Shown here one piece after another: positions 951-39,400 of a stretch of DNA of 48,434 bases. The notes below the pieces were generated by a model that did not search any database, had not been told where the DNA came from, and saw nothing but the letters and a program-made list of their open reading frames with translations. Origin of the DNA: a virus (Duplodnaviria; Caudoviricetes). The translations under genes and the position numbers were made by a program. Each line of letters starts with the position of its first letter. The first letter of the stretch is position 1. The stretch covers positions 1-48,434 of the IMG/VR virus record IMGVR_UViG_3300032259_000006. One strand, 5' to 3'.

Positions 951-1003
951 TTGCTCGTTCCTCTTGTGTCGTCAGAAAGCCGACGCGAACTGTCAGTATC
1001 GCG

Positions 1004-1666: not shown

Positions 1667-1670
1667 GCCG

Positions 1671-2114: not shown

Positions 2115-2128
2115 CTTCTTTCCTCCGA

Positions 2129-2154
2129 AGCCCGCCGGCGGATTCCGGCGGGCT
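2129..2154 (-). terminator. GC-rich stem-loop after the major capsid gene (weak terminator or processing site)
   Basis: AGCCCGCCGG-N6-CCGGCGGGCT is a perfect 10-bp stem. No U-tract; the next RBS follows immediately. Confidence 0.5.
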
Positions 2155-2165
2155 ACTGCTTGGGG

Positions 2166-3149: not shown

Positions 3150-3164
3150 TTCTCTTTCTCCCGG

Positions 3165-4214: not shown

Positions 4215-4290
4215 CGTTCGGTTCTCCTTGCGGCCCTCACGGGGCGGCATTCATTCGGTGAATGTTTGTAACTGCGACCATTCGCGCGAG

Positions 4291-4299
4291 AGTATATCA
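4291..4299 (-). promoter_or_regulatory. Candidate extended -10 promoter for scaffold/capsid genes
   Basis: Minus strand reads TG-A-TATACT, where the TGA is the methylase stop codon. No well-spaced -35. Confidence 0.45.
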
Positions 4300-4986: not shown

Positions 4987-5186
4987 TAGTACCCCAGCGA
5001 CCCGACTCGCTGGCTCTCTGGGATGGGATCGGGCGCGCGGCACGCGGCAATAACGCGCCGTACCTCCAATATCCGGCCGCGCGTCTGCTCGCAATTGGCC
5101 GCCACAAGGTCGGCAGTCAATGCCGCCTCGCGCGCCTGCAACGCTTCAATAAGCGCTTCAATGGTTTCTATTTGAGCCTTTGGCAT
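4986..5186 (-). CDS. Small protein downstream of portal
   Basis: 66 aa, helical, packed between the portal and methylase genes. Confidence 0.65.
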   Translation of the reverse strand: MPKAQIETIEALIEALQAREAALTADLVAANCEQTRGRILEVRRVIAACRAPDPIPESQRVGSLGY

Positions 5187-5187
5187 G

Positions 5188-7392
5188 CTAAATCCCCGTC
5201 CCCATATTTCGTTTCAAGGCCATTTCTGCCTGCTTGTTCGCTTCACGCGCTGCGACGCGACGATCCTCCGACGCGCTCCTATCGCGCGCACCTTCGAGCC
5301 GCGCCTGCTCTATGCCAAGCCGCGTCTGCATGTCGGCCACCGTGGTTTCGCGATCCAGTGCCAGCCGGGCAATCGCATAGTATTCATCGCTGCCGATGCG
5401 GGATTGGGCGACTTGCAGGTCAACCTGCGCTTTGATTTTCGCGATTTCAAGCGCTGACTGCGCTTGTATTTGCGCCGCCTGTACGCGAGCCATATCGGCC
5501 GGGCTGCCGCCCTCTCCTTCGTCCGGCTGGGCTTCCGCCGCCGCTGCCAGTTCTTGCTTGGTCTTGATCAGGCCGCGGTGCTCAACATCCATAGACTCCA
5601 GCGCGCGGCGATACAGCTCATCGAAATGCGTCAGCTCGGCGAGGCCGGTTGACTGCGCCAGATTGAGTAGCCCCATCAACGTATCGGCCTGAACCTCGCG
5701 AGTCAGCAGCACCGACGATCCGCGCGCGTCTACTTCCCAATCCCCCTTGATGTCGCCATTTGGCGAGTTCTGCATATTCCAGTTGTAAAACCCGGTAATC
5801 AGCGGGGTTGTGATGTTGTCGTCCCAGAACTTGACCGCTTGGCGCAGAACAATGTTGCCGGCATTCATGAGCATTGCCATACCGCGCACAGTGCCGGTCG
5901 CTTGGCCTTGCTCGCCTTGGCCCAGCATCGGGAGGCCGACTTCCTGATCCACCATCTCCCGCGCCGTGGCCATGATCGCGCCCAGCTCCGGCTGGTGCGA
6001 ATCCACATTGAACGTCGCGAACGCATTGGCAATACCGCCCTGCTGCGAATTCAGGTCGCGCTCGGTGAACCAAAGCTTTCTCGGCGCCAGCTCCCAGTCG
6101 CCATCGGCCGGCCTGATCCGCTCGCGATCAATAACCACCTGCGGTCCGACCGATAAACCGCCGTTGTCCATCTGCATGCGCCACGATGAATCGATAACCC
6201 GCTGGGGATCACGGATCAGCGCCGGAACGCCGTAGCCGAAAACGCTGGACTCAGACGGCGACCAACACGAAACGTGATAGGGGCGCTCTTCCGTCTCCAT
6301 CGGGTTGACCGCAATACGGATGACTTGGCCGTTTGCGATCTCGACAATGGCTTCGATCTCATCGCGGTCATCTTCCTCATCGATTCGGTCATGGTCGGCC
6401 TCGTCGTCCAGCTCCATATTGCCCAGCTCCAGACCGGCACCCATATCGCCGCGACTGATCGTGCCGTGATACTCCCAGATTTCGATGGCCGAATCATCAC
6501 GGTCAGAAACGGAAATGCCCGCCTGCTCGCGTAGCGCGTCAAGCGCATCGCTCGCGATGCGGTGCTCTGACGGATCTGCCTTAAGCGCCAGATCGATGGC
6601 GGGGGAGAGATAGCCGGGCAGCTTCCGCAATCTGGACAGCTCCTTGCGCGCCAACCTCCGGCGCTCGAATATGTAGGCGCAATCCTCTACGCGACTGGTG
6701 CCGGCTTTCAGGCACGGGAAGAAATTCCAAACCGATACATGCTCCGCCCTTGGCCGCAAGTCTTCCTCCACCGAGAGAGCGTATTCCCCGCCCTCCACCT
6801 GCTCCCACCGTTTGCGCACCCTCGTCGAGTTGACCGGCCCTTTAACGATGCCGGTGCCGAAGCTGCACATCTCGGTGATCACGTCGCGGGCGACCCCACG
6901 ATAGCGGCACTCAGTAAGCTGATCGGCGATCTCGTCTTCCATCGCCTCCGCGCGCTCCGCCGCCTCATCGAGCGCAGCCCGCGCCACGTCGGCGGGGTCG
7001 TACTCTGCACCATCCGCAGGGTCGATATCGGTATCGCCTGCCGCGCTGGCCGCCGCGGACAGCTCGGGAACTGGCGTCGGGATCACCCCGAAATTGCGAG
7101 TATCCAGCGGGAACAGCAGATCCGAAAGCCGCGCGGCGGCGGCGTTGCGCTTAGACCTTGAAATATTGAACCGCACCTTTGACCCCGGCGCGTCGTCGTT
7201 GGACGATTCCCGGTGGTCGACCGACAGTTGCGCAAGGTCTCGAAGCATTCGCCGCTCAATATCTCCGCGGTCGCTCACCGCGCGGCGTGCCTTACGAATT
7301 AGCGCCTCGGCCAACGTGGAAAGCTGCGCCTCCATTGCGCTGCGACGTTCGACCGTACTCTGCTCGCCGTCCGGCAATCCCGTTAATGACAT
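5188..7392 (-). CDS. Portal protein
   Basis: About 734 aa directly after TerL. FGTGIVKGP, IEIWEYHG, FGYGVPALIRDPQ and T..G.AMLM motifs plus a C-terminal coiled coil fit P22/N4-like portals. Confidence 0.9.
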   Translation of the reverse strand: MSLTGLPDGEQSTVERRSAMEAQLSTLAEALIRKARRAVSDRGDIERRMLRDLAQLSVDHRESSNDDAPGSKVRFNISRSKRNAAAARLSDLLFPLDTRNFGVIPTPVPELSAAASAAGDTDIDPADGAEYDPADVARAALDEAAERAEAMEDEIADQLTECRYRGVARDVITEMCSFGTGIVKGPVNSTRVRKRWEQVEGGEYALSVEEDLRPRAEHVSVWNFFPCLKAGTSRVEDCAYIFERRRLARKELSRLRKLPGYLSPAIDLALKADPSEHRIASDALDALREQAGISVSDRDDSAIEIWEYHGTISRGDMGAGLELGNMELDDEADHDRIDEEDDRDEIEAIVEIANGQVIRIAVNPMETEERPYHVSCWSPSESSVFGYGVPALIRDPQRVIDSSWRMQMDNGGLSVGPQVVIDRERIRPADGDWELAPRKLWFTERDLNSQQGGIANAFATFNVDSHQPELGAIMATAREMVDQEVGLPMLGQGEQGQATGTVRGMAMLMNAGNIVLRQAVKFWDDNITTPLITGFYNWNMQNSPNGDIKGDWEVDARGSSVLLTREVQADTLMGLLNLAQSTGLAELTHFDELYRRALESMDVEHRGLIKTKQELAAAAEAQPDEGEGGSPADMARVQAAQIQAQSALEIAKIKAQVDLQVAQSRIGSDEYYAIARLALDRETTVADMQTRLGIEQARLEGARDRSASEDRRVAAREANKQAEMALKRNMGTGI

Positions 7393-7393
7393 T

Positions 7394-8896
7394 TCAGTAC
7401 CCTGCGATTTTGTCCCGCACAGCATGCGAAACGATGTAATCGGATGCCGGGCGCGGTGCCGGCGCTTGTTGTGCCACATCTTGCCACGACATGACTAGAT
7501 ATCGAGTCGCATCCATAAGGTGGTCGCTTTCCTTGACAATGTTCCCCGCCTCGTTGCGGCGATAGATGCGCTGTTCCTCAATCCAATTCGTGCAGGTCCG
7601 AAAAACCTTGAGCCGCCCGGACGATAGCCGCTCCATTACCGCATAAAGGCCGGCGCTCACTGCGTTGTCGGCCTTGGACAGCTTGAGGCCAAGGCCAATA
7701 AATACTTGCATGATCTTGGTGCCGTCCATCTGCCCAGAGGCATTGGCTGCCGGATCGATGGCGCCGCGAATCCACTTGCCGCGCGCGTTGATCCCGGCAA
7801 CGTGAACGGATGGCTCCACCTGCCCGCGGTAGTGCTCTGAATACAGATAGAGCACATCGGTGTCTGGATCGAGCGCCCCCCAGATCGCCGCGGTGCGCCG
7901 CCACCCCACGTCGAGGCCATAGGCGCGCGGCCAGTGCTTTGGCAAATCGAGCGGATCGATAACAAACTCTTCCTCATCGACGGGGTAGATTGCGCCCGCG
8001 CCCAACGATGGAACGCCTTTTGATCTCGCATCGCGCTGAAATGCCGGATAGGCCGCAAGCATTTCGGCCTTGGCCTTGGTGCTTAGGTGCGGCACGTCGT
8101 CCCATGTCGCAGTGACTACCAGCGAGCTAGATTGCCTGTCACGGTGATCCGTGTCAGATCTCGCGCGCACCGATTGGATCAGCGGCGTAAGTCCGCGCAG
8201 CGGCGTGAACGTGGAGTAAACGATGCCGCCGGTGGTCGCGGTGCGGGTGATGCCCTCCGCGTAGACCGACGCAGGGCACTCTTCATCTGGCCAGAACAAG
8301 TGCAGCTCGAACCCCTGAAAGATGCGCGCGCCTTGGTCGTAGGACCGGAACATTAGGCGACTCACGCCGCCGGACACATGCCGCACCGTTACAGAATCCA
8401 ACATCTCGCGCACCTGCGGGTGCCGGATGAGGCTGATTATGCTGTCGGCCGGGATCAGGCCGGTGCCGGGATTGGTGAGCGGGCCGACCATTTTGGCTTG
8501 CACCGTGTCCCGGCAAAGCGGAAAGGTTTCGCCCGCGACCATCGCCTCGATAGGGCCATCGAAACGCCTGCCCTCCCACCAATCCGGGTAATTGCCGGTG
8601 AGGTGGCAGACCGCCTCATATCCGCCAGCCATTGTCTTGCCGACGCGGTTGCCGGCCATAAATGTGCGCTCGCGGTAATGCGAGCCACCGGCGAAAAACC
8701 CAAGGTGCTTGGGGTACAGCTCGCGGCGCATCGGGCCGGTGTCGGGGAACATCGACGCGATCACATTGCGCGACCGCCGACGCTCCAACTCGCGAAGCAA
8801 CGCCAGCAATTGCCGCCTGTCCTCCGGCGACATTGCCCGCACCCGATCCATATCAATGGCCGCCCCTTGCGTGTCAATCGTCGGCATCGCCCTCAT
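7394..8896 (-). CDS. terL: Terminase large subunit
   Basis: Walker A AGNRVGKT, Walker B FWPDEE, TFTP motif, nuclease GLDVGW and DHLMDATRY. Confidence 0.95.
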   Translation of the reverse strand: MRAMPTIDTQGAAIDMDRVRAMSPEDRRQLLALLRELERRRSRNVIASMFPDTGPMRRELYPKHLGFFAGGSHYRERTFMAGNRVGKTMAGGYEAVCHLTGNYPDWWEGRRFDGPIEAMVAGETFPLCRDTVQAKMVGPLTNPGTGLIPADSIISLIRHPQVREMLDSVTVRHVSGGVSRLMFRSYDQGARIFQGFELHLFWPDEECPASVYAEGITRTATTGGIVYSTFTPLRGLTPLIQSVRARSDTDHRDRQSSSLVVTATWDDVPHLSTKAKAEMLAAYPAFQRDARSKGVPSLGAGAIYPVDEEEFVIDPLDLPKHWPRAYGLDVGWRRTAAIWGALDPDTDVLYLYSEHYRGQVEPSVHVAGINARGKWIRGAIDPAANASGQMDGTKIMQVFIGLGLKLSKADNAVSAGLYAVMERLSSGRLKVFRTCTNWIEEQRIYRRNEAGNIVKESDHLMDATRYLVMSWQDVAQQAPAPRPASDYIVSHAVRDKIAGY

Positions 8897-16965: not shown

Positions 16966-17113
16966 CCCGCCCGAATGCGACCGTTCATGGCTGCGCGCGA
17001 CGCTGGATAGCATCGTGGTCCGCGACGAGCTGCCGCCCGACGAGTTCCCCGGCGGCCTGACTGCCAGCGAATGGATGCCGCCAGAGAATGACGACGAGGA
17101 TAAAGATCAATGA
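16958..17113 (+). CDS. 51-aa acidic peptide (not in ORF track)
   Basis: MINPPECDRSWLRATLDS...NDDEDKDQ. GGGGA RBS; its stop overlaps the next ATG. Confidence 0.55.
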   Translation: MINPPECDRSWLRATLDSIVVRDELPPDEFPGGLTASEWMPPENDDEDKDQ

Positions 17114-17340
17114 AGACCATTTCACGAATGATCCGAGAAACCGGCCTGCCTGACGCGGATGCAATGGCGGATTGGCTTGAACGCGAGCACCCCGGACTAG
17201 GAGAAAAGTACAAGACTCCATCGTCCGCGGTAGTCGGTGGGATCACGTGGCGCCAGACGCCATTCGGCTTCGCAAAGTGGGGAAAGGTCTATGGTGCGTT
17301 GTGCCGTGCCGAAGCCGCTGCCAAGGAGCAAGGCCAATGA
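17110..17340 (+). CDS. IRET/W..TPF paralogue family, copy 2
   Basis: MKTISRMIRETGLPDADAMADWLEREHPGL...ITWRQTPFG..KW. Confidence 0.85.
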   Translation: MKTISRMIRETGLPDADAMADWLEREHPGLGEKYKTPSSAVVGGITWRQTPFGFAKWGKVYGALCRAEAAAKEQGQ

Positions 17341-17606
17341 AAAGCATCCCAGAACTGATCCGAGAGACCGGCTTGCCCGACGCGGATGAGATGGCCGATT
17401 GGCTGGAGCGCGAACACCCTATGCTGGAGCGCGAATACCACGGGCTGGGCGGGGTGGGCGAGACTTCCGCGTTCGCAATATCCGGCGCGTTTGTGTGGCA
17501 CGAGACGCCATTCGGATCGGAGAAGTGGGCAAAGGTCTATTTTGAGCTGTGCCCTGCCGGAGCCGCTACCAAGGAGCAAGCCCATGACGCACATCAATCT
17601 GGTTGA
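17337..17606 (+). CDS. IRET/W..TPF paralogue family, copy 3
   Basis: MKSIPELIRETGLPDADEMADWLEREHPML...FVWHETPFG..KW; a tandem duplicate of copy 2. Confidence 0.85.
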   Translation: MKSIPELIRETGLPDADEMADWLEREHPMLEREYHGLGGVGETSAFAISGAFVWHETPFGSEKWAKVYFELCPAGAATKEQAHDAHQSG

Positions 17607-18087
17607 GCCGTTCCAGATGCTCAGCAAGCCCCTAATGGCCGAGTATCGACGGCTGCCGCGCATATTCACGGCCGTTCGTGAGCTGGAGGCGCAGGGCAAA
17701 ACCGCAGGCGACGTAGAGATCCCAGAGCACTACGTTCTGGGGGCGGGGCACGAGCGGTTTTTCTACCCTAAGATCGACTGGCTGCGCCGTCGTTACGCCG
17801 AAATCCGAGATGAGCTGATCAGTCGCGACTACATCCTCGATCCGACGCTATCGGCCAAGATCCTGAGCGACACGGAGAGCATAGGCGAAGGCTGGCGCAA
17901 GCCGTACAAGCCGACGCCCGACGAGATTTGCTTGAGCATGGCCCATCTGTGCGTCCGGTCTGGGCTGGACAGCGTAGCCGATGAGCTGGCGCGCGGGCTT
18001 GCGCCCGCCAAGGGCTTAGGGGCGGCGCGCAGCGTCCGCGTGGAATGGGAGCGTGGCCTTGTCGCGCTCGCGGGAGAAGACCAATGA
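17584..18087 (+). CDS. denV: T4 endonuclease V (pyrimidine-dimer glycosylase) homologue with altered active site
   Basis: MTHINL...LMAEYRRLPRIF...LGAGHERFFY compares with T4 MTRINL...LMAEYRELPRVF...LGAGHVTFFY. AAGGAG RBS. Confidence 0.85.
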   Translation: MTHINLVEPFQMLSKPLMAEYRRLPRIFTAVRELEAQGKTAGDVEIPEHYVLGAGHERFFYPKIDWLRRRYAEIRDELISRDYILDPTLSAKILSDTESIGEGWRKPYKPTPDEICLSMAHLCVRSGLDSVADELARGLAPAKGLGAARSVRVEWERGLVALAGEDQ

Positions 18088-18347: not shown

Positions 18348-18982
18348 TGAAAGCCATGAACCATGTCGAGAGTGCAGAGTTTATTGATGACGTGCTGCAC
18401 GGCGGCGATGAGGCGGCGATGAGGCTGCTGGCAGAAGCCGAGTACGCAGACAAGTTCCTTCACGCTGTGGATTTTGTCGATGAGCTGGTGCTGTCGCCGC
18501 CGGGTGTGTTCGGGAGCGTTGACGATAGTGAGCGTTACGTGGACGCCGCGCGACGTGTCGCTGCGTACCTGCGGAGGTATAAGCGGGAGTTGGACAAGCA
18601 GAAGTTGGCCAGACACACGCCTCTGCCGAGTGTGGAGCCATTGCGCTATGCGGTGGCCGATGCGAGCCGGTATTGGTTCGCCATCCGAGACGACATGCTG
18701 CCGCCACGCCCGGAGGAAAAGACGGCAAAGCCGGAACAACTGGAAGCGGCGCTGCCTGACGTGGATCAGATGGCGGGACAGCCTGAGCGCGCCGAGACTG
18801 AACGACAGGCCGAGATCATCCGAGAACTTCAAGCGGCCCTTATGGACGCGCTTGACTGGAACTGGCTTGATGACGATAAGCCGGCAGACCTTTACCGTAA
18901 GTATTACATTCTTGCTTGCCGCCAAGATGGCGTTGAGCACAGCGACCAAGGCGAAGCTACACCTAGCAAGGGGTTGAGATAA
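18344..18982 (+). CDS. Hypothetical protein
   Basis: 212 aa, acidic and helical; coupled at both ends. Confidence 0.65.
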   Translation: MMKAMNHVESAEFIDDVLHGGDEAAMRLLAEAEYADKFLHAVDFVDELVLSPPGVFGSVDDSERYVDAARRVAAYLRRYKRELDKQKLARHTPLPSVEPLRYAVADASRYWFAIRDDMLPPRPEEKTAKPEQLEAALPDVDQMAGQPERAETERQAEIIRELQAALMDALDWNWLDDDKPADLYRKYYILACRQDGVEHSDQGEATPSKGLR

Positions 18983-19263
18983 TGATTAAGTATCAAGTGT
19001 GGTGCGGAGAGATTAAAGCCATTGTGATTGCGCGAGAAACAGACGACTCTGTTTTTATTCCTCGGCCTAACGGAAAGGAAAAGAGGAAAGCCAAGCGCAC
19101 GGACGGTGGCGGATGGTTCGACACCTTCGAGGAAGCTAAAGCTTTCTTAGTTCACCGAGCACTGCGAGAACTCACAGCAGCCAGGGTTCGCCTTGATCGC
19201 GCCAAAAGACAGCTAAAGAAAATGCGCGAACTGAGCGAAACCCAGCCAGTCACGAGGTATTAA
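18982..19263 (+). CDS. Hypothetical protein
   Basis: RETD.SV...FDTFEEAK..L pattern; TAATG overlap. Confidence 0.7.
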   Translation: MIKYQVWCGEIKAIVIARETDDSVFIPRPNGKEKRKAKRTDGGGWFDTFEEAKAFLVHRALRELTAARVRLDRAKRQLKKMRELSETQPVTRY

Positions 19264-19265
19264 CA

Positions 19266-19556
19266 ATGAATGAGATTCAAGCGGCCGATAACAGGGGGAG
19301 TAAAGGCGCGGGGGAGATGCCCGTGTCTGGATTTGAACATGAAATCCCTTATTTGGTAATAAAGCTAAAAGACGCTGACGGACATCTCACAACCGCCGAA
19401 AAGGAGTTGTTACAGGCGCTTGCCACCAAGATGGCGCGGGGACGCACCGACGCCATCTTGGTGGCACTCAGGTGTGCGGTGGCCTAGTCTGATTGGCCCG
19501 GATACATTCCGACATGGCGCGCGATTGTAAAGCGAGTCAAGGAGAATAAGCAATGA
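19266..19556 (+). pseudogene. Phage protein interrupted by an in-frame TAG
   Basis: Reads ...YLVIKLKD...LRCAVA*SDWPGYIPTWRAIVKRVKENKQ*. The frame continues 22 codons past the TAG (19485-19487) to a TGA that overlaps the next ATG. Confidence 0.6.
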
Positions 19557-20482
19557 AAACCATTTCACAGCTCATCCGAGAAACCGGATTGCCCGGCGCG
19601 GATAATCTGGCCGACTGGCTAAAGAGTGAGCACCCCGACTTGGACGAAGAGCCCGGAGTCCCGTCGTATGTGATAAGCCGCACGTTCGCGTGGTGCTTAA
19701 CACCCTTCGACGCCAAGGCATGGATAGGGGTTCATCGTGCGTTGCTTGACGCCGAGACCGCTACCACGTGCAAGCCGATGAGCAACATCCAAGACGACTG
19801 GCCCGAGATGCCAGAATGGGCCGACGTAATGACGCAGGACCGCGACGGGGAAGTCAGTGGCTGGGGCGGCCTGCAAGACGGCATGCTGCCAACCATCGGC
19901 GAGGCCGGGTTCTGGACCTATCTGGGCTCCAGTACCAAGCTCAGGGCCGAAGTGCTTCGCAAGGCATCTGGCATCTGCTCCGTTAATAGCGCTTGGCGCC
20001 CCCGTATCATCACCCGCGCGGAATGGGAGGGCGGAGCTTCGCATACTGACAGTCAACCAGCCGCGAGTCCAAAGCCTCGCCGGAATCCCAAGCGCAAGAC
20101 GCGGAAACAGTTGAAAGCCGCCCTCAAGCGAGCGCGGAGAACCATTCGCACCGAATGCGCTCGCGCGAATGACGCCGAGAGTTACAGGATTACGCTTGAT
20201 GGGTACAGGGATGCCCTGCTCGCCGCGCAGCGCGAACTAGGGGTGGCCAGCCGCAAGGTTAAGGCCAGCGCCCGCCGTGGCTTCTTTCACTCGGAGCGCG
20301 TCGCTAGGCTGCGCGCCGAGGCTATGGGGCTGAGCATGCGCGCTTGCAAACGCGAGGGGATCTTTGAACTCACGTTGCCTAACGGCGAAACCTACGTCTG
20401 CCCTGCGTGCGAGGTGGATGTGTACCTTGACGGATTTTACGAGGCGTTGGAGGCGGCCGCCGTCTCGGGAGGGCAATCATGA
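19553..20482 (+). CDS. Mosaic protein: paralogue family copy 4 fused to further domains
   Basis: N-terminus MKTISQLIRETGLPGADNLADWL...FAWCLTPF, then a DW..PEWA..TQDRDG domain and a basic coiled coil. Confidence 0.8.
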   Translation: MKTISQLIRETGLPGADNLADWLKSEHPDLDEEPGVPSYVISRTFAWCLTPFDAKAWIGVHRALLDAETATTCKPMSNIQDDWPEMPEWADVMTQDRDGEVSGWGGLQDGMLPTIGEAGFWTYLGSSTKLRAEVLRKASGICSVNSAWRPRIITRAEWEGGASHTDSQPAASPKPRRNPKRKTRKQLKAALKRARRTIRTECARANDAESYRITLDGYRDALLAAQRELGVASRKVKASARRGFFHSERVARLRAEAMGLSMRACKREGIFELTLPNGETYVCPACEVDVYLDGFYEALEAAAVSGGQS

Positions 20483-20772
20483 GCGGCACTTACGAACATT
20501 GGATAAAAACAAACTATCCGACAAAGGAAAGCTGCATTAATAAATGCAATGAGGCGGTTAGAGCGATGATAGATTGCTTTAATGAGTTGACAGTGCAAGT
20601 CGGGTATGCAAATGGTGTTTATCATTGCTGGTGTAAAGATGCTGACGGAAAGATTGTTGACCCTACTGGAAAGCAATTTGATGGAGGAATAAATTACACA
20701 CTGATAGCGGACAGGTTTTTAAAGAAACATGAAATCGAACTATCGACAGGCGCGCTTTTCTTAGACACATAA
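20479..20772 (+). CDS. Low-GC hypothetical protein (transglutaminase/papain-like C...H.W...D pattern)
   Basis: KCNEAV...YHCWC...IVDPTGKQF. Markedly more AT-rich than its flanks. Confidence 0.65.
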   Translation: MSGTYEHWIKTNYPTKESCINKCNEAVRAMIDCFNELTVQVGYANGVYHCWCKDADGKIVDPTGKQFDGGINYTLIADRFLKKHEIELSTGALFLDT

Positions 20773-20826
20773 GAAAGCACAGGTCGCGAATGGCTTTCGG
20801 GCGTCCGATTGATTAACTTGTTAGCT
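20767..20826 (-). mobile_element. Partial attC-like site A
   Basis: Right arm CCGATTGATTAACTT-GTTAGCT resembles the right arm of site C; the left arm is degenerate. Confidence 0.5.
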
Positions 20827-20845
20827 GCTTAATGTGAGGACAAAA

Positions 20846-21124
20846 ATGAGCAAAAAATTTGAGGAATGCTTTTGTGAACCCTGCCAGTTCTACCCCGACG
20901 CTTTTCATGTTAGCAGGCGCAAATATGACTCAGAACAGGCGGCAAAACTGATAGGCCGCGAGTGCGCCGAAGACGTGAAGGCTGGGGACTTGAAGCCTAA
21001 ATGGGTTCGATTCCAGTTTGCCGACGGATCATTGCGTGAAGAGTTTGGCTTGGATCACTGCTGGGCGGTTGTGCGGGAGGGAACGAAGAACGCTCAGCCG
21101 ACATGGGAATATGAGTGCAGCTAA
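20846..21124 (+). CDS. Hypothetical cassette-borne protein
   Basis: GAGGA RBS. Bracketed by GTTAGCT (20820) and AGCTAAT (21119). Confidence 0.7.
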   Translation: MSKKFEECFCEPCQFYPDAFHVSRRKYDSEQAAKLIGRECAEDVKAGDLKPKWVRFQFADGSLREEFGLDHCWAVVREGTKNAQPTWEYECS

Positions 21125-21339
21125 TGAAGATTAAAGAGATCACATCACAGAACCGCCGCGACTTCCAAGCGGTATATGAGTGCGAACACTGCGGACATGA
21201 AAAGAGCGGCTGTGGGTACGACGACGTTAATTTTCACAGCAACGTCATCCCGGCGATGGAGTGCGAAGAATGCGGGAGAACTGCGGCGGATACTTACCGC
21301 CCCCTTGCGACGAAATACCCTGAATGGATGGCTGTATAA
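21124..21339 (+). CDS. Small Zn-binding protein
   Basis: RRDF.A.YECEHCG...GYDD.NFH..VIP.M.C..CG. Confidence 0.8.
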   Translation: MKIKEITSQNRRDFQAVYECEHCGHEKSGCGYDDVNFHSNVIPAMECEECGRTAADTYRPLATKYPEWMAV

Positions 21340-21436
21340 TGACTATGCTCAGGAGCGCAGTAGGGCGCACCGTGAAGCCTGAATTCACCGCCAAACCGCG
21401 CCGCCCTACTGCGTCGCATGGAGATAATTGTTATGC
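21334..21436 (-). mobile_element. attC-like site B (103 bp)
   Basis: Ends are GTATAAT and GTTATGC. Contains a perfect 12-bp inverted repeat CGCAGTAGGGCG/CGCCCTACTGCG and an inner GTGAA/TTCAC. Confidence 0.65.
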
Positions 21437-21636
21437 GCCCTGACTGCCCTTGTTGCGGTGAGTTGCTGGTACACGCAAATCTTGGAAACGGCACCGTAGA
21501 CACGTACTGCGAGGACTGCGGATGGCCCGACGAGTGCCGCGAACCTAACCCCAACTGCGTAATCTGCGGCCGGCCGGGAGTCGGCGTTTGTGGAGAAACA
21601 TGGCGCTGTGAAGACCATTGGCGTGATGGCGCATAA
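21433..21636 (+). CDS. Cys-rich Zn-binding cassette protein
   Basis: CPCC, CEDC, CVIC, CEDH. The ATG lies within GTTATGC and the stop within GCATAAC; alternative start at 21418. Confidence 0.7.
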   Translation: MRPDCPCCGELLVHANLGNGTVDTYCEDCGWPDECREPNPNCVICGRPGVGVCGETWRCEDHWRDGA

Positions 21637-21717
21637 CGGCTTTGATAAGCCGCGCTCCCACTGAGCAAGAAGAGAACTCCGACGCTTACCGGCGCCGGCT
21701 TGATTAAATTGTTATAA
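21631..21717 (-). mobile_element. attC-like site C (87 bp, canonical spacing)
   Basis: Minus strand: TTATAAC, 5 nt, AATCAAGC ... GCTTATC, 6 nt, GTTATGC, which is the R''-L''-L'-R' layout with the extra base in L''. Confidence 0.75.
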
Positions 21718-21730
21718 ACCGGAGTTTAAT

Positions 21731-21940
21731 ATGAAACAACCACCGTTAATTGATGAGTTACTTGATAAGAGCAATATGCTAGGAACCGACCAAGCCGAGA
21801 TAAACGGGCGCTGGTATATTGCAAAACCGCTTCCGTACTACGGCTGGCACAACATAGTGACGCGCGTATACCACGCAGGGCTTGTGCTGATTGGGCGCGC
21901 TTCTGCGTGGCAGTATGCCGAGGACAGGAAAGGTTTATAA
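21731..21940 (+). CDS. Hypothetical cassette-borne protein
   Basis: GGAG RBS; INGRWYIAKP motif. Bracketed by GTTATAA (21711) and TTATAAC (21935). Confidence 0.75.
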   Translation: MKQPPLIDELLDKSNMLGTDQAEINGRWYIAKPLPYYGWHNIVTRVYHAGLVLIGRASAWQYAEDRKGL

Positions 21941-21989
21941 CTACTGGATAGACACCGCTTTCGGTGCCATCAAATTAGGAAGTTGCGAA

Positions 21990-22475
21990 ATGAAGACGCT
22001 TTACGACTGGAGCGAGATTCCGGAGAAGTATTCGGCAGGGACTACTGATGGCTGCGGAGGCACGTTCTTCTGGGAGCACGTGCATGGAAAGCCTATTGAG
22101 CGTTCAGACTTGGTGATTCACGACGGCAAGTGGCAAGTGGCTTCGCATTGCGGTCGCGATATCGAATGCTGTGATATAGAAATGATCACTTCTCGCGTTC
22201 CATGGCGTGAGTCATTCGAGCAACGACCCGTGGAGGTTGGCAACGAGGCCGAGCGCAGCGGATTGACCTTGGTCGGAGGCACCGCCGTGACGGAGCCTGA
22301 CGGCACGCGGCACGGCTTTTGTGATCCACGGGAGGTGCTTGGGTTCATTCGCGGCTACCAAGCCCGCAAGGCGTTCACCGCCCGCGCGGCAAACCTGAGC
22401 GCCGCGCCTGACCATTTCACCCACGGGGCGGGCGACTACGGCCCCTCTTACGATCTGACGGAGGGCGGGCAATGA
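21990..22475 (+). CDS. Hypothetical protein with YDWS.IP domain
   Basis: MKTLYDWSEIPEKY..TTDG.G..FFW...WRESFEQRP. AGGA RBS. Confidence 0.7.
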   Translation: MKTLYDWSEIPEKYSAGTTDGCGGTFFWEHVHGKPIERSDLVIHDGKWQVASHCGRDIECCDIEMITSRVPWRESFEQRPVEVGNEAERSGLTLVGGTAVTEPDGTRHGFCDPREVLGFIRGYQARKAFTARAANLSAAPDHFTHGAGDYGPSYDLTEGGQ

Positions 22476-22708
22476 TAAACCTTGGATCAGCGCAGCAGCT
22501 TGTTGACGAGCTGGTAGTAGAGATTGACAGAGCGATCAGCGATGACACGGCACCCGCGTGGTGCGCTTGGTGGCGCGGGCGCGCATCTGGCGCTGCTGAC
22601 ACCCTCAAAGCCTTTACTGAGGATGGCGAAATTGATTTCAGCCAGCTTGATTTGGCAGTGTCGAGACTGCATGAGGCGGACGACTACGGCGCGGGTGGTG
22701 GCCAATGA
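22472..22708 (+). CDS. Hypothetical acidic protein
   Basis: GGAGG RBS; ATGA overlaps. Confidence 0.65.
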   Translation: MINLGSAQQLVDELVVEIDRAISDDTAPAWCAWWRGRASGAADTLKAFTEDGEIDFSQLDLAVSRLHEADDYGAGGGQ

Positions 22709-22992
22709 ACGCCCTCCGCGCCGCGCTTATGACCGCCCTTATCTGGGTTGGCGTTGCCGCCCTCGGGCTTCTTCTCGGCGCAGGGTTCGACAAGTGGGCG
22801 ACGGTGGACAACGTGCCCGGTATCGTTGTGCAGAAATCGCTGTCATTCACCTACAGCGAGATCACCTACCTGCTGGTGCTGGATGTGGGCGGCGGCCGGC
22901 GCATCGAGTGCCACGCGACGCCGAGGCTGTTTGTGGCGGCGGAAGAGGGTGCGATCATGTCGTGCCCGGCAAGAATGGTGAAGAAGCAATGA
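22705..22992 (+). CDS. Membrane-anchored protein
   Basis: N-terminal TM helix ALMTALIWVGVAALGLLLGAGF. Confidence 0.65.
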   Translation: MNALRAALMTALIWVGVAALGLLLGAGFDKWATVDNVPGIVVQKSLSFTYSEITYLLVLDVGGGRRIECHATPRLFVAAEEGAIMSCPARMVKKQ

Positions 22993-23219
22993 GCAAGATC
23001 ATTATCAAAAACGTGTCCGATGCGTCGGACGAATTGGCGCTAAAGCTTGTCGGCCGCTCGCTGACAATGGACAAAGACGCGATTAAACGCTTTACCGTAA
23101 ACGACGCGGCAGTCTACTTTGTGTACGCAATACGGAACAAAGCATCAACGCGATATGTTGTCGCTGGCTGCGACGAAACCGAGAGAAAAGAGGGCCAACC
23201 ATGCAAATCAAATCAGTAA
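22989..23219 (+). CDS. Hypothetical protein
   Basis: MSKIIIKNVSD...; ATGA overlap. Confidence 0.6.
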   Translation: MSKIIIKNVSDASDELALKLVGRSLTMDKDAIKRFTVNDAAVYFVYAIRNKASTRYVVAGCDETERKEGQPCKSNQ

Positions 23220-23395
23220 AAATTCGCACCGCAGACGGACGAAAGTTCAAGACCGCCCCGGAAACCGGTGCGTCAAATGAGTGTCACGGGTGCTGCTTTT
23301 TAAAGCCGAAGTCCGGCCGGTGCGGTCGACCGTCCCACCTATTTACTCAAGCCTGTTCGGATGTCGGAGCAATCTGGATTGAGGTGACGAAGTGA
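23201..23395 (+). CDS. Small Cys-containing protein
   Basis: C.GC.F...C...C...IW pattern. Confidence 0.6.
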   Translation: MQIKSVKIRTADGRKFKTAPETGASNECHGCCFLKPKSGRCGRPSHLFTQACSDVGAIWIEVTK

Positions 23396-23655
23396 GCAGG
23401 CAGCACCACCGCCTCAAGACTGAAACGGAATTCTTTCAGGCCGTTGAGGCTGGAATAAAAAAGTTTGAGATCAGGCGAGATGATCGCGGCTTCAAGGTAC
23501 ACGACATGGTGTGCCTTGAAGAAGTCGTAAACGGAGTGCCAACAGGCCGCGAAGCCGGCCCCTTTGAGATCAGCTATGTGCTGACAGGCGACGAGGCCGG
23601 CCGGTATGGCCTCGGCAAAGGTCACTGCATCTTTAGCTGGTTCGGTTTGAGGTGA
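23392..23655 (+). CDS. DUF3850 / ASCH-like domain protein
   Basis: HRLKTETEFFQAVEAGIKKFEIRRDDRGFKVHD.VCLEE. Confidence 0.85.
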   Translation: MSRQHHRLKTETEFFQAVEAGIKKFEIRRDDRGFKVHDMVCLEEVVNGVPTGREAGPFEISYVLTGDEAGRYGLGKGHCIFSWFGLR

Positions 23656-23714
23656 CGGGATGACCAAGGCGAGCCCCGCAACGCGCACTCATAAACCAAT
23701 ACTGGAGATACGAA

Positions 23715-23999
23715 ATGCCATGCAACTGCGACCATCTTGAGCCAAGCAAGCGTGAACGAGAAAGCCGGCTGCTAATGTCGCTTCTAGCCGAAGTCGGGAT
23801 TGGGCGAGGCGATATCCCCTACTACGGACAGCTAGCCGCGGTCGACAAGCACACAGCCATGCTTTGCAAATTCTGCAAGGAGAACGACGTGACGAAGTAC
23901 AGCCCCGTTCTTCAAGCGTGGTGGGTATGCCACCAAGCGGCAGATAAGGAGAGGGGCCGGCGGGAGAGTCCGGGCGGTGGCGAGGGGGGCAAGCCATGA
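23715..23999 (+). CDS. Conserved-type phage protein (MPC...LC..C...WW..HQ.AD)
   Basis: GGAG RBS; motif as in the call. Confidence 0.75.
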   Translation: MPCNCDHLEPSKRERESRLLMSLLAEVGIGRGDIPYYGQLAAVDKHTAMLCKFCKENDVTKYSPVLQAWWVCHQAADKERGRRESPGGGEGGKP

Positions 24000-24265
24000 G
24001 AGTCATACGCAGCGCCACAGTGCCGAGAGGGAGCGTGGTCGCGCATGCTGTTTCAAGGTGCAAGTGTGGGGCGGACGCGGAGCTGGTGAAGCTGCGCCGT
24101 GAGAAGCGCGGGTCCATGCTGATCCGCAGGACGCTCAGGCCGGACAGCCATTTCAAAATAACGTACCGCGTAGAGTGCCCGTCATGCGGCGCGCACAGCG
24201 GCGCGGAGATGAAAACGAAAGCGGGCGCGGCCCGCGCGTGGGAAAGGAAAGGGGGCAACCAATGA
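23996..24265 (+). CDS. Lar-like Zn-finger protein
   Basis: CKCG...Y.VECPSCGA.....A...AW resembles the Lar restriction-alleviation family. Confidence 0.55.
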   Translation: MRVIRSATVPRGSVVAHAVSRCKCGADAELVKLRREKRGSMLIRRTLRPDSHFKITYRVECPSCGAHSGAEMKTKAGAARAWERKGGNQ

Positions 24266-24474
24266 CCGCCAGAAAACAGAAGCCACGTGTTGGCACGATG
24301 GAGCGCGACCTGATCGATTCCGGCTGCATGGATGACTGGGACGAGGCCAGCAGGCTGTCGATACTGGTGTCCTCCGGCGCCGGCAACCGGGCAACAAGGC
24401 TCAAGCATCGCCGGCTGGTGAAGCGGGTTTCAGCCAAGTTAGCAAGGGCGCGAGCAAGGCGCGGAGAGCGTTGA
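24262..24474 (+). CDS. Small basic protein
   Basis: MTARKQKP...; ATGA overlap. Confidence 0.55.
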   Translation: MTARKQKPRVGTMERDLIDSGCMDDWDEASRLSILVSSGAGNRATRLKHRRLVKRVSAKLARARARRGER

Positions 24475-24499
24475 CAGCGACGCTCCGCGAGCGTAGTAT
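24471..24499 (+). promoter_or_regulatory. Sigma70-type promoter
   Basis: TTGACA, 17-bp spacer, TAGTAT, followed by ACACCACCACCA (24509-24520). Confidence 0.8.
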
Positions 24500-24534
24500 C
24501 CAGCGCAGACACCACCACCACACGGAGCCCCGCA

Positions 24535-24885
24535 ATGACAACAAAGGCGAGAATTAAGCCGGCCGCAGCGGCCCGGCTGCGTGGCGCCTGCGCCCCGTAT
24601 GCAAACCAGTTCTACCGCTGGCCGCCGTTGAACGCGCTCGGCCGCGCTACCGGGCTGAGCTATCACGTTATCGCCAAGGTGCTGAACGGAGATAGCCCGC
24701 ACAGCGCGGCGGTTTGCGGCGGAATTTCCCCCGTCGGCCGGCGGGTTCATCCCGCTGTTGCCGGCCCTGCATGGGGGTATCTTGTCTATGGCGAGGTGCC
24801 TCATTGGATTCGACGCGGAGCATCCGCACCCACCATACCGCGCAGCACGCCAGAGGATGACCTGTGGCCCGACGTTGCGTGTTAA
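24535..24885 (+). CDS. HTH transcriptional regulator-like protein
   Basis: LNALGRATGLSYHVIAKVLNG. GGAG RBS; first gene after the promoter. Confidence 0.6.
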   Translation: MTTKARIKPAAAARLRGACAPYANQFYRWPPLNALGRATGLSYHVIAKVLNGDSPHSAAVCGGISPVGRRVHPAVAGPAWGYLVYGEVPHWIRRGASAPTIPRSTPEDDLWPDVAC

Positions 24886-24919
24886 GCGCTCGGCAATGAC
24901 GAGCAACAGGAGCAAGTAA

Positions 24920-25897
24920 GTGAAAAAGGCAACCCTCTACATGGCCGACCCGAGCGTGCTGGCCTCCATCGCCAGACTTATGATTACCATGTCCGGTTCG
25001 CGCACCGTCGACGAGCTGCGATACCGGCCCATTACCGGCCTCGAAAAGCTGGGGACGAAAGGCTGGAAAAGCCCATCGCTTGATGGCCGCCTCGCCATTG
25101 ATGCCGGTCAATCCGTGCTGCTGCACTACTGCATCGCCATGCGAGTACCGGCGAAGGAGCGAATCGAAGAGATCGACGCTTGCACGCCTGCCCTGCCTGC
25201 TGACGCCATCCGCGAGGACCGGGAGCGGCGCAAGGAAATGGTCTACATCGAAGCGGCCAAGACGGCGCCGATCAAGGTGACCGACGTGCCTGTCGCTATC
25301 GACTGCGTGAGGGGGCGCGTAGTTATTGGCGACGTATCGGCGGTGACCTGTGACACCGTGGCCTCTGCCTTGAGGGCGCTGTCTGCAATCAGCGACCCCC
25401 CGCACAGCAGCGGCCTTGGCCTTCGCCCCTACACTCCCTGCGACGAGGACATGCACAAACTTCTGCGGGATTTGTCGCTGGGGTTTTTCAACAGCGTGCG
25501 GACCATGCACTCAGATGTGGCTGACGACACCGCCCCCGAACCCGAAGATCGCTTCCGGCTGCGCACGCAGGTGGCAAGGCAGAGAAGCACCGTAACTGGC
25601 CGCCTTATCCCGGCAGGCGACAGCATCGTGCGCGGATGTGTCGAGGATGACGGCATGGTATTCCAATCGCTCGGCGTGAACTTCGGCGACTTTTCCTGTG
25701 ATCTGTTCGAGGACTGCACCGTCCGCGCGATCAAGTGGCACAAGGATCTTAATGATGAAGTTCTGGACGAGCACGCCGGCGACAACCATTCTCTCGCCAT
25801 CGCCGAAGCGACGCTGCACGCTGGCTGCCTGCTCTCCGTGTTTGGTGATCTGGAAGGCGCGCTGGAAGAAATCAGTGCGCAGGATGGCGACGGGTGA
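24920..25897 (+). CDS. rdgC: RdgC-like recombination-associated protein (divergent)
   Basis: 325 aa. Y.P..G......GW..P, ID...G.V.I..VS....D....ALR and the C-terminal helix follow the RdgC layout. AGGAG RBS. Confidence 0.6.
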   Translation: MKKATLYMADPSVLASIARLMITMSGSRTVDELRYRPITGLEKLGTKGWKSPSLDGRLAIDAGQSVLLHYCIAMRVPAKERIEEIDACTPALPADAIREDRERRKEMVYIEAAKTAPIKVTDVPVAIDCVRGRVVIGDVSAVTCDTVASALRALSAISDPPHSSGLGLRPYTPCDEDMHKLLRDLSLGFFNSVRTMHSDVADDTAPEPEDRFRLRTQVARQRSTVTGRLIPAGDSIVRGCVEDDGMVFQSLGVNFGDFSCDLFEDCTVRAIKWHKDLNDEVLDEHAGDNHSLAIAEATLHAGCLLSVFGDLEGALEEISAQDGDG

Positions 25898-26304: not shown

Positions 26305-26673
26305 ATGATCACGCAAAAAGAAGGCGCTCGGCACGCGCTGGAGGCCGTGGCCGGCGCCGCGGCGAGAGCAACCGCCGATGCCGATGCCAGCGCCGGCGCC
26401 GGACGGGATACTTCCGAGTTCGCGGGTATTCACCAGCACATCGGAGCGGCCTGCGCAATCTTTGCGTCAGGCCAGAACGACGCATCTTTGGAGCTGCACG
26501 GGCACTCAACGCTGGCCGTCGCGCTGGCAAGGGCGCTGGCCGCAATCTTGGCCTATGACTCGGCCCATGATACGGGCGCCGTGCGCGCGCTGACAGACCT
26601 GCTTTCTGACGAAATAACCGCCGGCACTCCGGCAGGTTCCACTACGGACTTTTTTGGGAGAATGTCACGATGA
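26305..26673 (+). CDS. Hypothetical protein
   Basis: GAGG RBS; Ala-rich. Confidence 0.6.
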   Translation: MITQKEGARHALEAVAGAAARATADADASAGAGRDTSEFAGIHQHIGAACAIFASGQNDASLELHGHSTLAVALARALAAILAYDSAHDTGAVRALTDLLSDEITAGTPAGSTTDFFGRMSR

Positions 26674-27224
26674 ACGTCAAGTCGATTTTGCTCATGGTCG
26701 CGGTTCTGCTTTGCGCGGCCTCTTTCCCGGCCGCTGCCGCGGAAGACTACAAGCGCTCAGACGAGCGTGAGGCCGAGGCCGCGCTGGTAGCGGTGGGCGT
26801 ACTTCTGGCCGGGCGTGCGTTGAATGTGGACGCAGGCACGCTCCACATCGGTTCGTGGCATAGCTGGCGCGGCAAGATGCGCAAGCAAGAGTTCAACCCC
26901 GGCGCCGGCCTTATCCTTGATATCAACGGGACTGCCCAGTATCGGATGGGCACGTATCTGAATTCTCACGGCCGGCAAACCGTTTATGCCGGTGGCGCCC
27001 TGTTACTCGGTGAGTTCTGGGGGCTGCGCATGCGCGGTATTGCCGGGCTAGCCAGCGGCTATCGCCACGCGCGAGGTATGCGGTCGGTTATCCCGATTGG
27101 CATGCTGGAGTTCTCCCATCCGCGCACAGGCGCCCGCGTCGGTATGTCGGCCGAGATCGATGAGGGCCGCGTCATGGGCGCGCTGCTTACCGTGTCCCTC
27201 GACTTTTGGAACGCCGGCAATTGA
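26670..27224 (+). CDS. Signal-peptide-bearing outer-membrane beta-barrel, PagP-like
   Basis: Sec signal ending AAA-E. SWH...EFNPGAGL...G.YLNSHGRQTVYAG...GLASGY, alternating beta strands and an aromatic C-terminus. Confidence 0.6.
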   Translation: MNVKSILLMVAVLLCAASFPAAAAEDYKRSDEREAEAALVAVGVLLAGRALNVDAGTLHIGSWHSWRGKMRKQEFNPGAGLILDINGTAQYRMGTYLNSHGRQTVYAGGALLLGEFWGLRMRGIAGLASGYRHARGMRSVIPIGMLEFSHPRTGARVGMSAEIDEGRVMGALLTVSLDFWNAGN

Positions 27225-36452: not shown

Positions 36453-39400
36453 TCAGAATCGAACCGCGCCCTTGAGTTCATCCGCCAGCGACGCCGACAA
36501 GGCCATGCCCCCCTCGGCGCGCTCGCTGTACCGCTCACGGGCGCGGATCGACTGGCGGATCTTCTTATCAGGGCTTTCGCCCAGCGCCTCACGCAGCCGC
36601 ATGCGCGCCTCCCGATAGGCGGCCATGTCCCCGGCCATCTTGGCCAGCGCGGCAGCATTCAGAAGGCGCCGGCGCCGGTCGAGAATTCTGGACTCGTAAA
36701 GCCGCAGAGAGCTGTTGCGGTCGTACCTGTGCGAAACCCGATCCGGCGTTATGCCCATTGACTGCAAGGCGGTTTCCCAGCCTGAAATATCATCGACAAG
36801 CGGATCGCCACGGTAAGTATTCACGCCTTCGCTGGCGTACCGAATGGCGCGCAGCGCGTCACGGAACACCTTCGGCACCATCTTCTCGATCCCGCGCTCA
36901 ACCTCGCCATCATTGATCATTGACGCGCCAATGGCGCCGTTGGCAACAATGCCGAAGCCGGGGCCGGCGATAGTCTCCAGCCAGTATGCCGACAAGTCGC
37001 GACCCTCCAAATCCCTGTCAGGCGACCGGAACCAAAGCGAGTCCAGCGACACGCGGCTGTGAATATCGCCGCCGGTCGCCACGTTCAGCAGGCCGTGCGT
37101 AATCGCCCGCCCGCCCGTCTCGCCGGCAATGTCAGCGATGAAGTTCTGGTATTCGGTAGCAAAGTCGTATTCTTCGTCATCGTCGCCGAAGGCCGAGGCC
37201 GCGGCGTTGGCGACCATAGCCACCACGCCGAACAGCGGTAGCCCAGTCGTGCCGGCAGCGATGGCGTGCATGCCGAGCACACCAGTCAGCAGCCGCCGCG
37301 CTTGGGCGCGCTCCGCCTTCGTGTCGCCCTTGAATGACTTGTACAGGTTTCGCCACAGCAGGTAGCTCATGTTCAGGCTGTATTGCCGGAACATGAGCAG
37401 CACTTTCGCGGCGTTGCCTTGCATAAACCGCGCGCGGTTTGCGTTCTGGTAATCGAAGTGCGATTCATAGGTTGCGTCTCGCGCGTAGTCGATGGCCGCT
37501 TCGTGCTTCATGCCGGACTGCCTTGCCAGTCGGTAGGCGGCGACAGAAGTCACCTCGCGGTTCGCCACCTCGGCATGATGGAACAGGAACCCGACCGCCC
37601 GCATTGTTTTCTGCACACCGGGGCGGTAAGTGTCCATGTCGTTCTCGCTGGCGCCGGCAAGGTCCATTGTCATAGTTCTGTCGATGACGCCCTCGGCCTC
37701 AAGCTGCTCATAGGCCGCGCGCTCTTCGGCGTTCAGGCTGGCACGAATGTCGCCCTTGCCCTTGCTGTAGCCCTTGAGCGCCCTTGTCAGCTCGCGCGAC
37801 GTGCGCCGGAAGCCGAACTTTGATCCGATGACCGGCAGGGCGACAAGCGGCGTTTGGGTCAGGTTGACCAATGCTGCCGCCGGGGTGACGCCGAGATACC
37901 ACGCGAAGTTGGTGCTGGAAACCGTCGATACCCATCCGGCATTGCGCGGCTCCATGATCCATTGGTGCCGCTTGAGCATTTCGTTGAAGTAGTCCGCCGC
38001 GGCGTTGGCGTTCTCGTCGTTTTCGCCGGACATGCCCTTGACGTGATCTTTCATCTCCGACAGCGCACGCTCCAGCTTGTCGCTGTGCCGCAGGCGGCTG
38101 AATGCGAAGCTGCCGTGGAATGCTTGTTTCGCGAAGGCGCGCATGGCCTCGTTGCTGTAGCCGGCCCGCCCGGACCGGTGGATGAACTGCTTACGCACGC
38201 TCACATCCGGCATCGTGGTCAGCCACATCTGGTATACCTGATCTTTCACTTCCTCGGCAGCCTTGCCGCCACCGGATTCGTCGAGGATCTTTGTCACCTC
38301 GTTGACGAAGCCCGACGAAGCACTTACCAGCCCGGTCGATTGATCCAGCTTCTTACCGGAGCCTTCAATCTTCGCGCCCTGCTTTTTCAGCGCATCAATC
38401 GCGCGACGCTGGTCGGTCGGCGATTCGTACATCGTGAATAGCTTTTCACCGTCGGCATCGATTGCCGACACCCAATAGTCACCGAATCGAGCCAGCGGGA
38501 AATATGGGCCTTGAACTTTGGCGACCTCGAAGTGCAGGCGCAGCCGCTCCTTCATTGCTGTCTTGGCATTCTCGCTGCCTTCGATGCGATCAATGCGCGC
38601 CATTAGTTCTTCTTCCATGTCCGCTTGGCGTCGCACGTAAGCGTCGCGCACCTTGCGGTAAAGAACATGCGCCTCGCCATTGGTGTCGCGGCCAAGCTTC
38701 TCCCACCGCGCGCGAAGCCGGGCATACTCGCCCTTGCGCATCGGCGCCCGCGCGACGGCTTGTTCCAGTGATTTCAGCGTTGCGGCCTCATCGGCAGTTA
38801 GCTCTTTCTTGGCCTTGGCCCTGCCGTGAATCTTCTTGATCTTGGCCTTTAGCGCCACCACGTTGGCCGGCGCGAACGGCTTATCAGGGTCGATGCCGGC
38901 CAGCGTTGCATCGTGCATAAGGCCAGCCAGATCATCGCGAACAGCCTTGAACTTATTATTGAAGTCCCCCCATTCCGACGCGATCTTGTGCGCCTCATCC
39001 TGATAGCGCTTGCGGTCTGCAAACATCCGGTTCGCCACCGCGATGTACTCCTTGACCTGCGGCAGAATCTTCTGGCTTACGTCGCCGATGTGGCGCAGGC
39101 CAAGCAGCCCAAGCCACACAGACCGCAGCTTATCCGGTAGCGCGCGCAGCCTCTCCGCAGAGATCGCAGGCACGCTTTTGACCGCACTCTCTACCGCGTC
39201 AATCGTTCTTTGCCGATTCGATTCGCTGGAAGCGCCGCCACGGGAGAACAGCGCATCGGAAACGGGGCCGGCCACGCCGCCGCGCGAGAACGCAATGCGC
39301 GGATCGGCCGGGTCGAACGTGCCGCGGTTGCCGATGGCCGACTTGACCTGTGTCGGCTCGAAGGCGATGTAATGCACCGTGTTCTCGTCCATGCCCGGCA

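Follow-up and report, generated by a model that had tools for sequence, protein, structure and literature searches.

Integrons have been treated as bacterial devices, with cassettes that face the Pc promoter. Phage integrons, together with 17 CALINs, were described in a survey of 10,705 phage genomes (Qi et al. 2023, PMC9892861), and IntI1 recombined five of the six phage sites tested in that work, including two of Tetrasphaera phage TJE1. The main text of the paper mentions divergent attC sites in one phage; systematic gene reversal is unmentioned in it. Clusters of attC sites in integrase-less phages are already published there, and the novelty of the locus described here lies only in its reversed layout. 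The available part of Cury et al. (2016, PMC4889954) defines CALINs, describes ‘inverted integrase’ integrons and calls the mechanism of cassette making unknown. In those integrons intI is flipped with respect to attC, which is a different thing from the flipping of ORFs with respect to attC considered here. IntI also inserts cassettes at short attG sites (GWT) outside attI, according to the accessible text of bioRxiv 10.1101/2022.09.11.507474. The accessible portions of PMC13323075 and PMC8618304 contributed no information on gene reversal, and no report of reversed-gene cassette arrays in phages was found in a literature search that was thin on subscription papers.

The present locus is like that of TJE1 (PMC9892861) in having attC sites between small accessory genes of a phage without intI, with matched cores and with similar scores in our attC model R1. 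Unlike TJE1, where the genes are on the attC top strand (bottom strands minus, genes plus), it has its genes on the bottom strand, and only one site of the array is strong. With bacterial integrons and CALINs, as characterized in the available part of PMC4889954, it shares the attC structure, the logic of the cores and an attI-side end; bacterial cassette genes differ from it in being mostly canonical (18 of the 20 family-confirmed ones in this analysis). On sequence evidence, and with a probability that we put at roughly two thirds, the locus is a short, partly decayed integron-type cassette array in a run of small phage genes, with genes on the attC bottom strand and exchange likely carried out by an IntI from outside the record.

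The phage record and the genes of the array

The window (the whole stretch of DNA analysed, 48,434 bases) is an entire IMG/VR virus record (G000), linear and 58% complete by CheckV. Its products include a terminase, a portal protein, a large polyvalent protein, a helicase, a primase, a Sak4-like annealing protein and a methyltransferase (Pfam and PHROG matches), as well as a Cas4-domain exonuclease. The polyvalent protein (36453-44738) has 2761 aa with ART-PolyVal and LPD39 domains and is DarB-like according to PHROGs. A protein identical to that of g4 is encoded on a 54,167-base contig, so part of the genome is missing from the window. The first-pass annotation had stated that the array comes without an integrase. 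This is correct for the 48.4 kb read, since PF00589 and TIGR02249 gave no matches at E 10 in six frames (48,434 bases of a linear record with 58% completeness). The gene next after site D, g5, is not an integrase gene, and the intI-beside-attI arrangement of a complete integron was not found here; within the 58%-complete record the array has no adjacent integron integrase, as in a CALIN.

The array sits within a long stretch of small plus-strand genes. Elsewhere in the window the peptide MK.I..LIRETGLP.AD..ADWL..EHP is repeated at three ORF starts (17110-17606 and 19553-19750), which suggests duplicated gene modules. A 16-bp perfect inverted repeat with a 14-nt loop lies within a small gene (19421-19466), and accessory genes code for a pyrimidine-dimer glycosylase of endonuclease V type (17386-18087) and for a protein with a weak PagP-like match (26670-27224).

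Table 1. Genes, sites and the terminal core of cassette 1 in the array, in window coordinates
Feature	Position	Strand	Description
g0	20479..20772	+	97 aa; GC 40%; stop is the TAA of the site A left core; no matching upstream core
Site A	20767..20826	+ (bottom strand)	decayed attC; right arm and GTTAGCT kept, left arm degenerate
g1	20846..21124	+	92 aa; body of cassette 1 (GTTAGCT / AGCTAAT)
End core of cassette 1	21119..21125	+	no hairpin after it; contig of run X1 branches after 21124
g2	21124..21339	+	71 aa; Cys-rich; phrog_14808; no attC of its own
Site B	21334..21436	+	partly decayed attC; 12-bp stem; left core ends AAT
g3	21433..21636	+	67 aa; Cys-rich; body of cassette 3 (GTTATGC / GCATAAC)
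Site C	21631..21717	+ (bottom strand)	intact attC; extrahelical G on right arm
g4	21731..21940	+	69 aa; weak phrog_21988; body of cassette 4 (GTTATAA / TTATAAC)
Site D	21935..21980	+	core and short hairpin; no attC geometry

Three cassette genes had been proposed, each bracketed by its own complementary pair of 7-bp cores. All three pairs are in place: GTTAGCT at 20820 with AGCTAAT at 21119 (six of seven positions complementary, the last base being T, not C), GTTATGC at 21430 with GCATAAC at 21631 and GTTATAA at 21711 with TTATAAC at 21935 (seven of seven in both). They surround g1, g3 and g4, each of which takes its stop codon from the TAA of a core. A fourth gene of the array, g2, had been overlooked. 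As a control, a GTT 7-mer within 45 nt upstream of each of 31 plus-strand window genes was matched against the end core. The three claimed genes reach six or seven of seven, whereas none of the 28 others reaches at least six (best five of seven). Among the five left cores of the array, two end in AAT and one in AAG in place of AAC.

Whether g0 belongs to a cassette is not clear. The start of g2 lies in the g1 stop and its end in the left core of site B; no attC lies ahead of g2, and AGCTAAT is thus left without a hairpin behind it. Position 21124 is the predicted crossover point at the end of cassette 1. As a cassette, g2 was ruled out: it has no upstream core, and its relatives are encoded at 58 viral loci, none of which gave an R1 match at E 0.1. 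The genes of the array do look like phage genes, as had been suggested (g2, for example, belongs to phrog_14808). No Pfam or PHROG family was found for g1, only its own cluster. The ATG of g3 is inside the right core of site B, and a ribosome-binding motif is also located in that site. One g3 relative (locus L061, 80% identical) is a reversed cassette with different cores (GTATAAC after the gene, GTTATAC before it), and another (L062, 67% identical) is without attC; relatives of g4 occur in AT-rich cassettes and also without cores.

An Rfam search of positions 19000-25000 gave a single weak match, located outside the array, and no family at E 5 over the array. No terminator-like site was present on the plus strand between 20300 and 22300, and terminators were rejected as an explanation of the array hairpins on this ground. 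BLAST of the array against cultured phages returned just four weak pieces, and BLAST of site C against plasmids one piece at chance level; the full aadA7-like site pattern had no matches among viral sequences. Viral relatives of g1, g4 (single-sequence query) and g5 were not found, so we obtained no close relative with a different array.

Sites A to D as candidate attC sites

In place of the attC models of IntegronFinder/HattCI we used R1, a model made of 58 aligned bacterial sites with no window sequence among them. A degenerate 21-nt pattern, taken from the right half of site A, yielded 138 distinct bacterial loci (2 of 64 collection parts) and 123 viral loci (16 of 64 parts). A flexible structural detector, which recovers three of three TJE1 sites, was used to choose 61 diverse bacterial sites, and three doubtful or badly bounded ones were omitted. 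The resulting alignment shows strong covariation, in part by construction. R1 found all three TJE1 sites, with 33.2-43.8 bits.

Judged by its sequence and structure, site C qualifies as an attC. R1 scored it at 38.4 bits (E 1e-6, plus strand); this is in the range of TJE1, where IntI1 recombined two sites, which favours C as attC. The canonical geometry ascribed to it is there (6-nt spacer, 7-nt L', 8-nt L'' with an extra G, 5-nt spacer), all 10 core and L-box pairs are possible, and RYYYAAC and GTTRRRY cores with the conserved AAC/GTT are present; the layout is that of the aadA7 bottom strand printed in the available part of the PMC9892861 supplement. The pfold of site C is 0.012, and its attC fold, at 3.1 kcal/mol above the minimum, is not the lowest-energy one; the pfold values of two TJE1 sites are 0.65 and 0.84. 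A strict (rigid) detector, one that misses all TJE1 sites, had site C as its sole match in the window, with a mean of 0.27 matches in each of 30 Markov shuffles. A looser detector gave two matches in the window (site C and 46148-46266) versus two in 20 shuffles.

The other sites are weaker. The 12-bp stem reported for site B is present, but R1 gave the site only 14.7 bits (E 0.27), 8 of 10 pairs are possible and its pfold is 0.014; contigs of run X1 have a C at 21424 that would restore one L-box pair. In the ranking of R1 matches over the window B comes second after C, followed by four matches at E above 4. Sites A and D were not found by R1 over the window. Both had been taken for decayed attC sites, and for A this stands: 4 of 10 pairs are possible, the pfold is 1e-6 and the right half fits the motif with which attC sites were retrieved. 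Site D was rejected as attC, having neither an attC fold nor an R1 match, and is better read as an end in the attI/attG position. Folding of A and D on the plus strand is no better or barely better than that of shuffles (z 0.9 and -0.9). At 21967-21968 X1 and X2 contigs carry about 29 extra bases, which give D an inner hairpin and a further TAAC core-like motif; the shorter form seen in the window is also present in X1. The array thus has one good attC (C, strong R1 score), one worn (B, E 0.27) and one ruined (A, without an R1 score). With a single strong attC, the locus is more decayed than the earlier description of an integron-like array implied.

Gene orientation and viral integrases

The ORFs were said to point opposite to the usual cassette direction, and we reached the same result: R1 models the bottom strand and matches the plus strand, which carries g1, g3 and g4. 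The canonical layout, with an ORF on the top strand that ends before its own attC, was not found, as g1, g3 and g4 follow their attC. We compared gene direction at all retrieved sites with a 300-nt flank. By ORF ends, the 63 viral sites comprised 28 reversed-only, 8 canonical-only, 18 both and 9 neither; the 82 bacterial sites comprised 8, 38, 11 and 25, respectively (Fisher p 4e-8 for the unambiguous sites, viral versus bacterial). ORFs on both strands were also compared with protein families, all 108 viral ORFs with PHROGs and 120 of 157 bacterial ORFs with Pfam (the ORFs of short loci and one long ORF that extends beyond its locus were left out). Family-confirmed ORFs were 10 reversed and 1 canonical among the viral 108, and 2 reversed and 18 canonical among the bacterial 120; counted per locus, the reversed to canonical ratio was 9:1 in viruses versus 2:15 in bacteria (Fisher p 1e-4). 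These figures refer to one attC sequence family; the libraries differ between viruses and bacteria, most ORFs are unmatched and kinship between loci is uncorrected. The two reversed bacterial exceptions are a ParD antitoxin and a DUF4160 gene, and methyltransferases make up 5 of the 10 family-confirmed reversed viral cassettes. The lone canonical viral match, a tail fibre gene at L115, spans its site and was kept in the counts; the site is probably false. Gene reversal is a viral trend.

The locus L061 belongs to an unrelated phage with 40% GC, which has two mirror-image arrays, each with the attC bottom strand on the gene strand. These arrays (753-8169) flank a divergent regulatory region; the phage is complete (38.7 kb) and has no PF00589 match. 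No attC sites were found in the first 50 kb of phage H101.

Among the 116 viral records behind the retrieved loci (many of them fragments, and not all with a true attC), TIGR02249 matched over its cut-off in two, G017 and G114. In G017 an HTH gene, a DnaB helicase gene, six attC sites (23-46 bits) and intI follow one another on one strand, with the last core directly before intI. All six core pairs are fully complementary, the genes are reversed, and the cargo includes a C5 methyltransferase, DUF5131 and a PAPS-reductase-like gene. The locus from this record (L355, 2687-7443; also L122) holds a complete reversed integron in the phage early region, with a full IntI (382 bits) that runs in the same direction as the cassette genes; a second tyrosine recombinase lies just downstream of IntI. 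G114 is a provirus with two weaker attC sites (25.1 and 17.1 bits), in which the order is that of G017 and one strand carries the genes, the attC bottom strands, the last core and intI; its IntI (361 bits; L368, 4926-7000) has small genes on one side and apparent head genes on the other. In both records the geometry of intI, attI and attC is regular and the genes alone are flipped. The two IntI proteins are 37% identical, and at this level nothing suggests that they belong to a single close clade.

A third virus, Rctr41k (L369, KX853513, 4680-10101), has an IntI-like gene annotated as xerD, followed by six long attC sites with canonical gene orientation; a viral IntI therefore does not imply reversal. 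Two records with reversed arrays, G001 and G004, are complete (direct terminal repeats) and have no PF00589 match, so that reliance on an IntI from elsewhere would be the usual condition. As two viral records carry their own IntI beside reversed arrays, the donor of IntI need not be the host. For the recombinase of the present array, IntI acting in trans is the best reading.

Signs of exchange at the cores, proposed mechanism and alternatives

Contigs of run X1, which may be the source sample, show three joints on positions 18500-24500, each in one contig, with 30 letters on the short side and likeness 85. The first departs from the window after 21124, where crossover at the end of cassette 1 is predicted, and returns to it at 21936 (depth 7.6); the second leaves after 21638, 2 nt past the site C crossover, and rejoins at 21937 (depth 9.3). 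The depth of the window's own path is 12-18. Both array-internal joints start at, or 2 nt past, the point between AA and C and end inside the D core, and the third (22013 to 22290) is away from any core. A hairpin resembling that of B, but differently flanked, is seen at loose contig ends at 21345 and 21432. A clean deletion would double the core; other sequence therefore likely lies between the ends, itself ending in a core before D. The two array-internal joints would thus likely fit replacement of g2-B-g3-C-g4 and of C + g4, respectively, by other cassettes.

Distant relatives of g4 (37-40% identical) lie between GTT and AAC cores at 16 AT-rich metagenome loci; 14 loci have both cores, 11 of them with seven of seven matches. 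Mean identity over the 120 pairs of these loci is 0.84 inside versus 0.28 outside the core. Nine near-identical copies all diverge directly after TGCTAAC, and five of the nine share the entire upstream hairpin with the gene, which argues that the hairpin moves with the gene, in agreement with the reversed model. The expected gain or loss of genes with breakpoints at the cores is supported by these cassettes, in which identity ends right after AAC, together with the two X1 joints. Six other loci of the same scan, the closest relatives included, have no such cores when read by eye. R1 gave two weak matches in the 22 loci, whose AT-rich hairpins are of a different type. In the AT-rich contigs L330-L346 the hairpins of the g4-family cassettes are long and without the extra G, and variants differ by apparently compensatory changes.

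The position of site D corresponds to that of the last core, abutting intI, in G017 and G114. Since both array-internal joints also rejoin there, D is read as the acceptor end, likely a fixed insertion end in the attI/attG position; it could be an old attI without its intI or an attG-type site. D resembles attG in its minus-strand core, GTT, and in lacking an attC fold. A difference is that attG insertions in E. coli show no strand preference (accessible text of bioRxiv 10.1101/2022.09.11.507474); repeated use of D along with one-way gene orientation points to selection or to a dedicated platform.

In the mechanism we propose, the mobile unit would be an attC hairpin followed by its gene, cut on the plus strand between AA and C. 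The plus strand would fold while phage DNA is single-stranded, and units would be excised and inserted in trans by IntI from the host's integron or from a co-infecting phage that bears IntI, with site D as an acceptor of attI/attG type. The genes, being reversed, would depend for expression on phage transcription coming from upstream and not on an integron Pc, with g3 helped by the ribosome site and start codon in B. Older, partly immobilised units may be represented by sites A and B and by the lack of an attC ahead of g2. In the available part of Loot et al. (PMC5371416), recombination is reported to be higher for bottom strands that lie on the lagging-strand template. Speculatively, if the genes are co-oriented with the replication fork, the reversed layout would place the bottom strand on the lagging template and keep exchange fast.

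Several observations weigh against this mechanism: C scores strongly alone, B has E 0.27, A and D went unfound, the attC fold of C is not the minimum, three of five left cores deviate from AAC, and the breakpoint-exact cassettes of the g4 family are just 37-40% identical to g4, with hairpins of another type, unscored by R1. The poor folding of A and D would also agree with chance cores beside ordinary intergenic hairpins (terminators or RNA-processing sites). Such an explanation is largely refuted by the E value of site C (1e-6) and by the core control, where 0 of 28 genes reach six of seven, and neither a plus-strand terminator nor an Rfam family was detected over the array; we regard it as very improbable. 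Slightly better, yet still improbable, is that attC-like sites serve another hairpin recombinase, encoded by the host or by the unsequenced part of the phage. The record is linear and 58% complete, the longer contig encodes the same g4, and g4-family cassettes elsewhere use hairpins that R1 misses, all of which leave room for such an enzyme; nevertheless, complete records with reversed arrays (G001, G004) have no PF00589 match, the enzyme that does adjoin reversed arrays is an IntI over the TIGR02249 cut-off, and site C fits the IntI-type model well.

The array could also be a relic, produced by IntI insertion in an ancestor (as in G017 and G114) that later lost the integrase, with the present variation generated by homologous or microhomology recombination of the phage at conserved attC ends. 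Decay of A and B and loss of the attC before g2 are in line with this, and the phage has suitable candidates in its Sak4-like annealing protein and Cas4-domain exonuclease; one of the three X1 joints lies off the cores, and the g3 start inside the B core ties that site to translation. However, both array-internal joints fall at cores, beyond the crossover the two paths have just a few bases in common, and site C retains all 10 core and L-box pairs together with the extra G. We consider a relic unlikely, though the strongest of these alternatives, and prefer exchange by an IntI supplied in trans.

What makes this small, worn locus valuable in itself is that a natural population shows signs of alleles being exchanged at the cores. 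Given a phage form with reversed genes, the same recombinase may serve phages to shuffle accessory genes, methyltransferases included, under their own transcription. Relatives of g2, g3 and g4 are found both bare and with unrelated attC sites, and the same families in the two states provide pairs in which the birth of a cassette could be traced. On this basis we tentatively raise a wider possibility, doubtful at present, that phages run their own reverse-polarity integron system: in some (such as G017 and G114) an early operon of reversed cassettes would close with IntI, others without an integrase, the present one among them, would draw on the shared pool, and ordinary phage genes would repeatedly become cassettes. 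G017 and G114 offer concrete enzymes and attI sites for testing. If true, phages would be a place where cassettes are made, and the old question of cassette origin would be opened to direct test.
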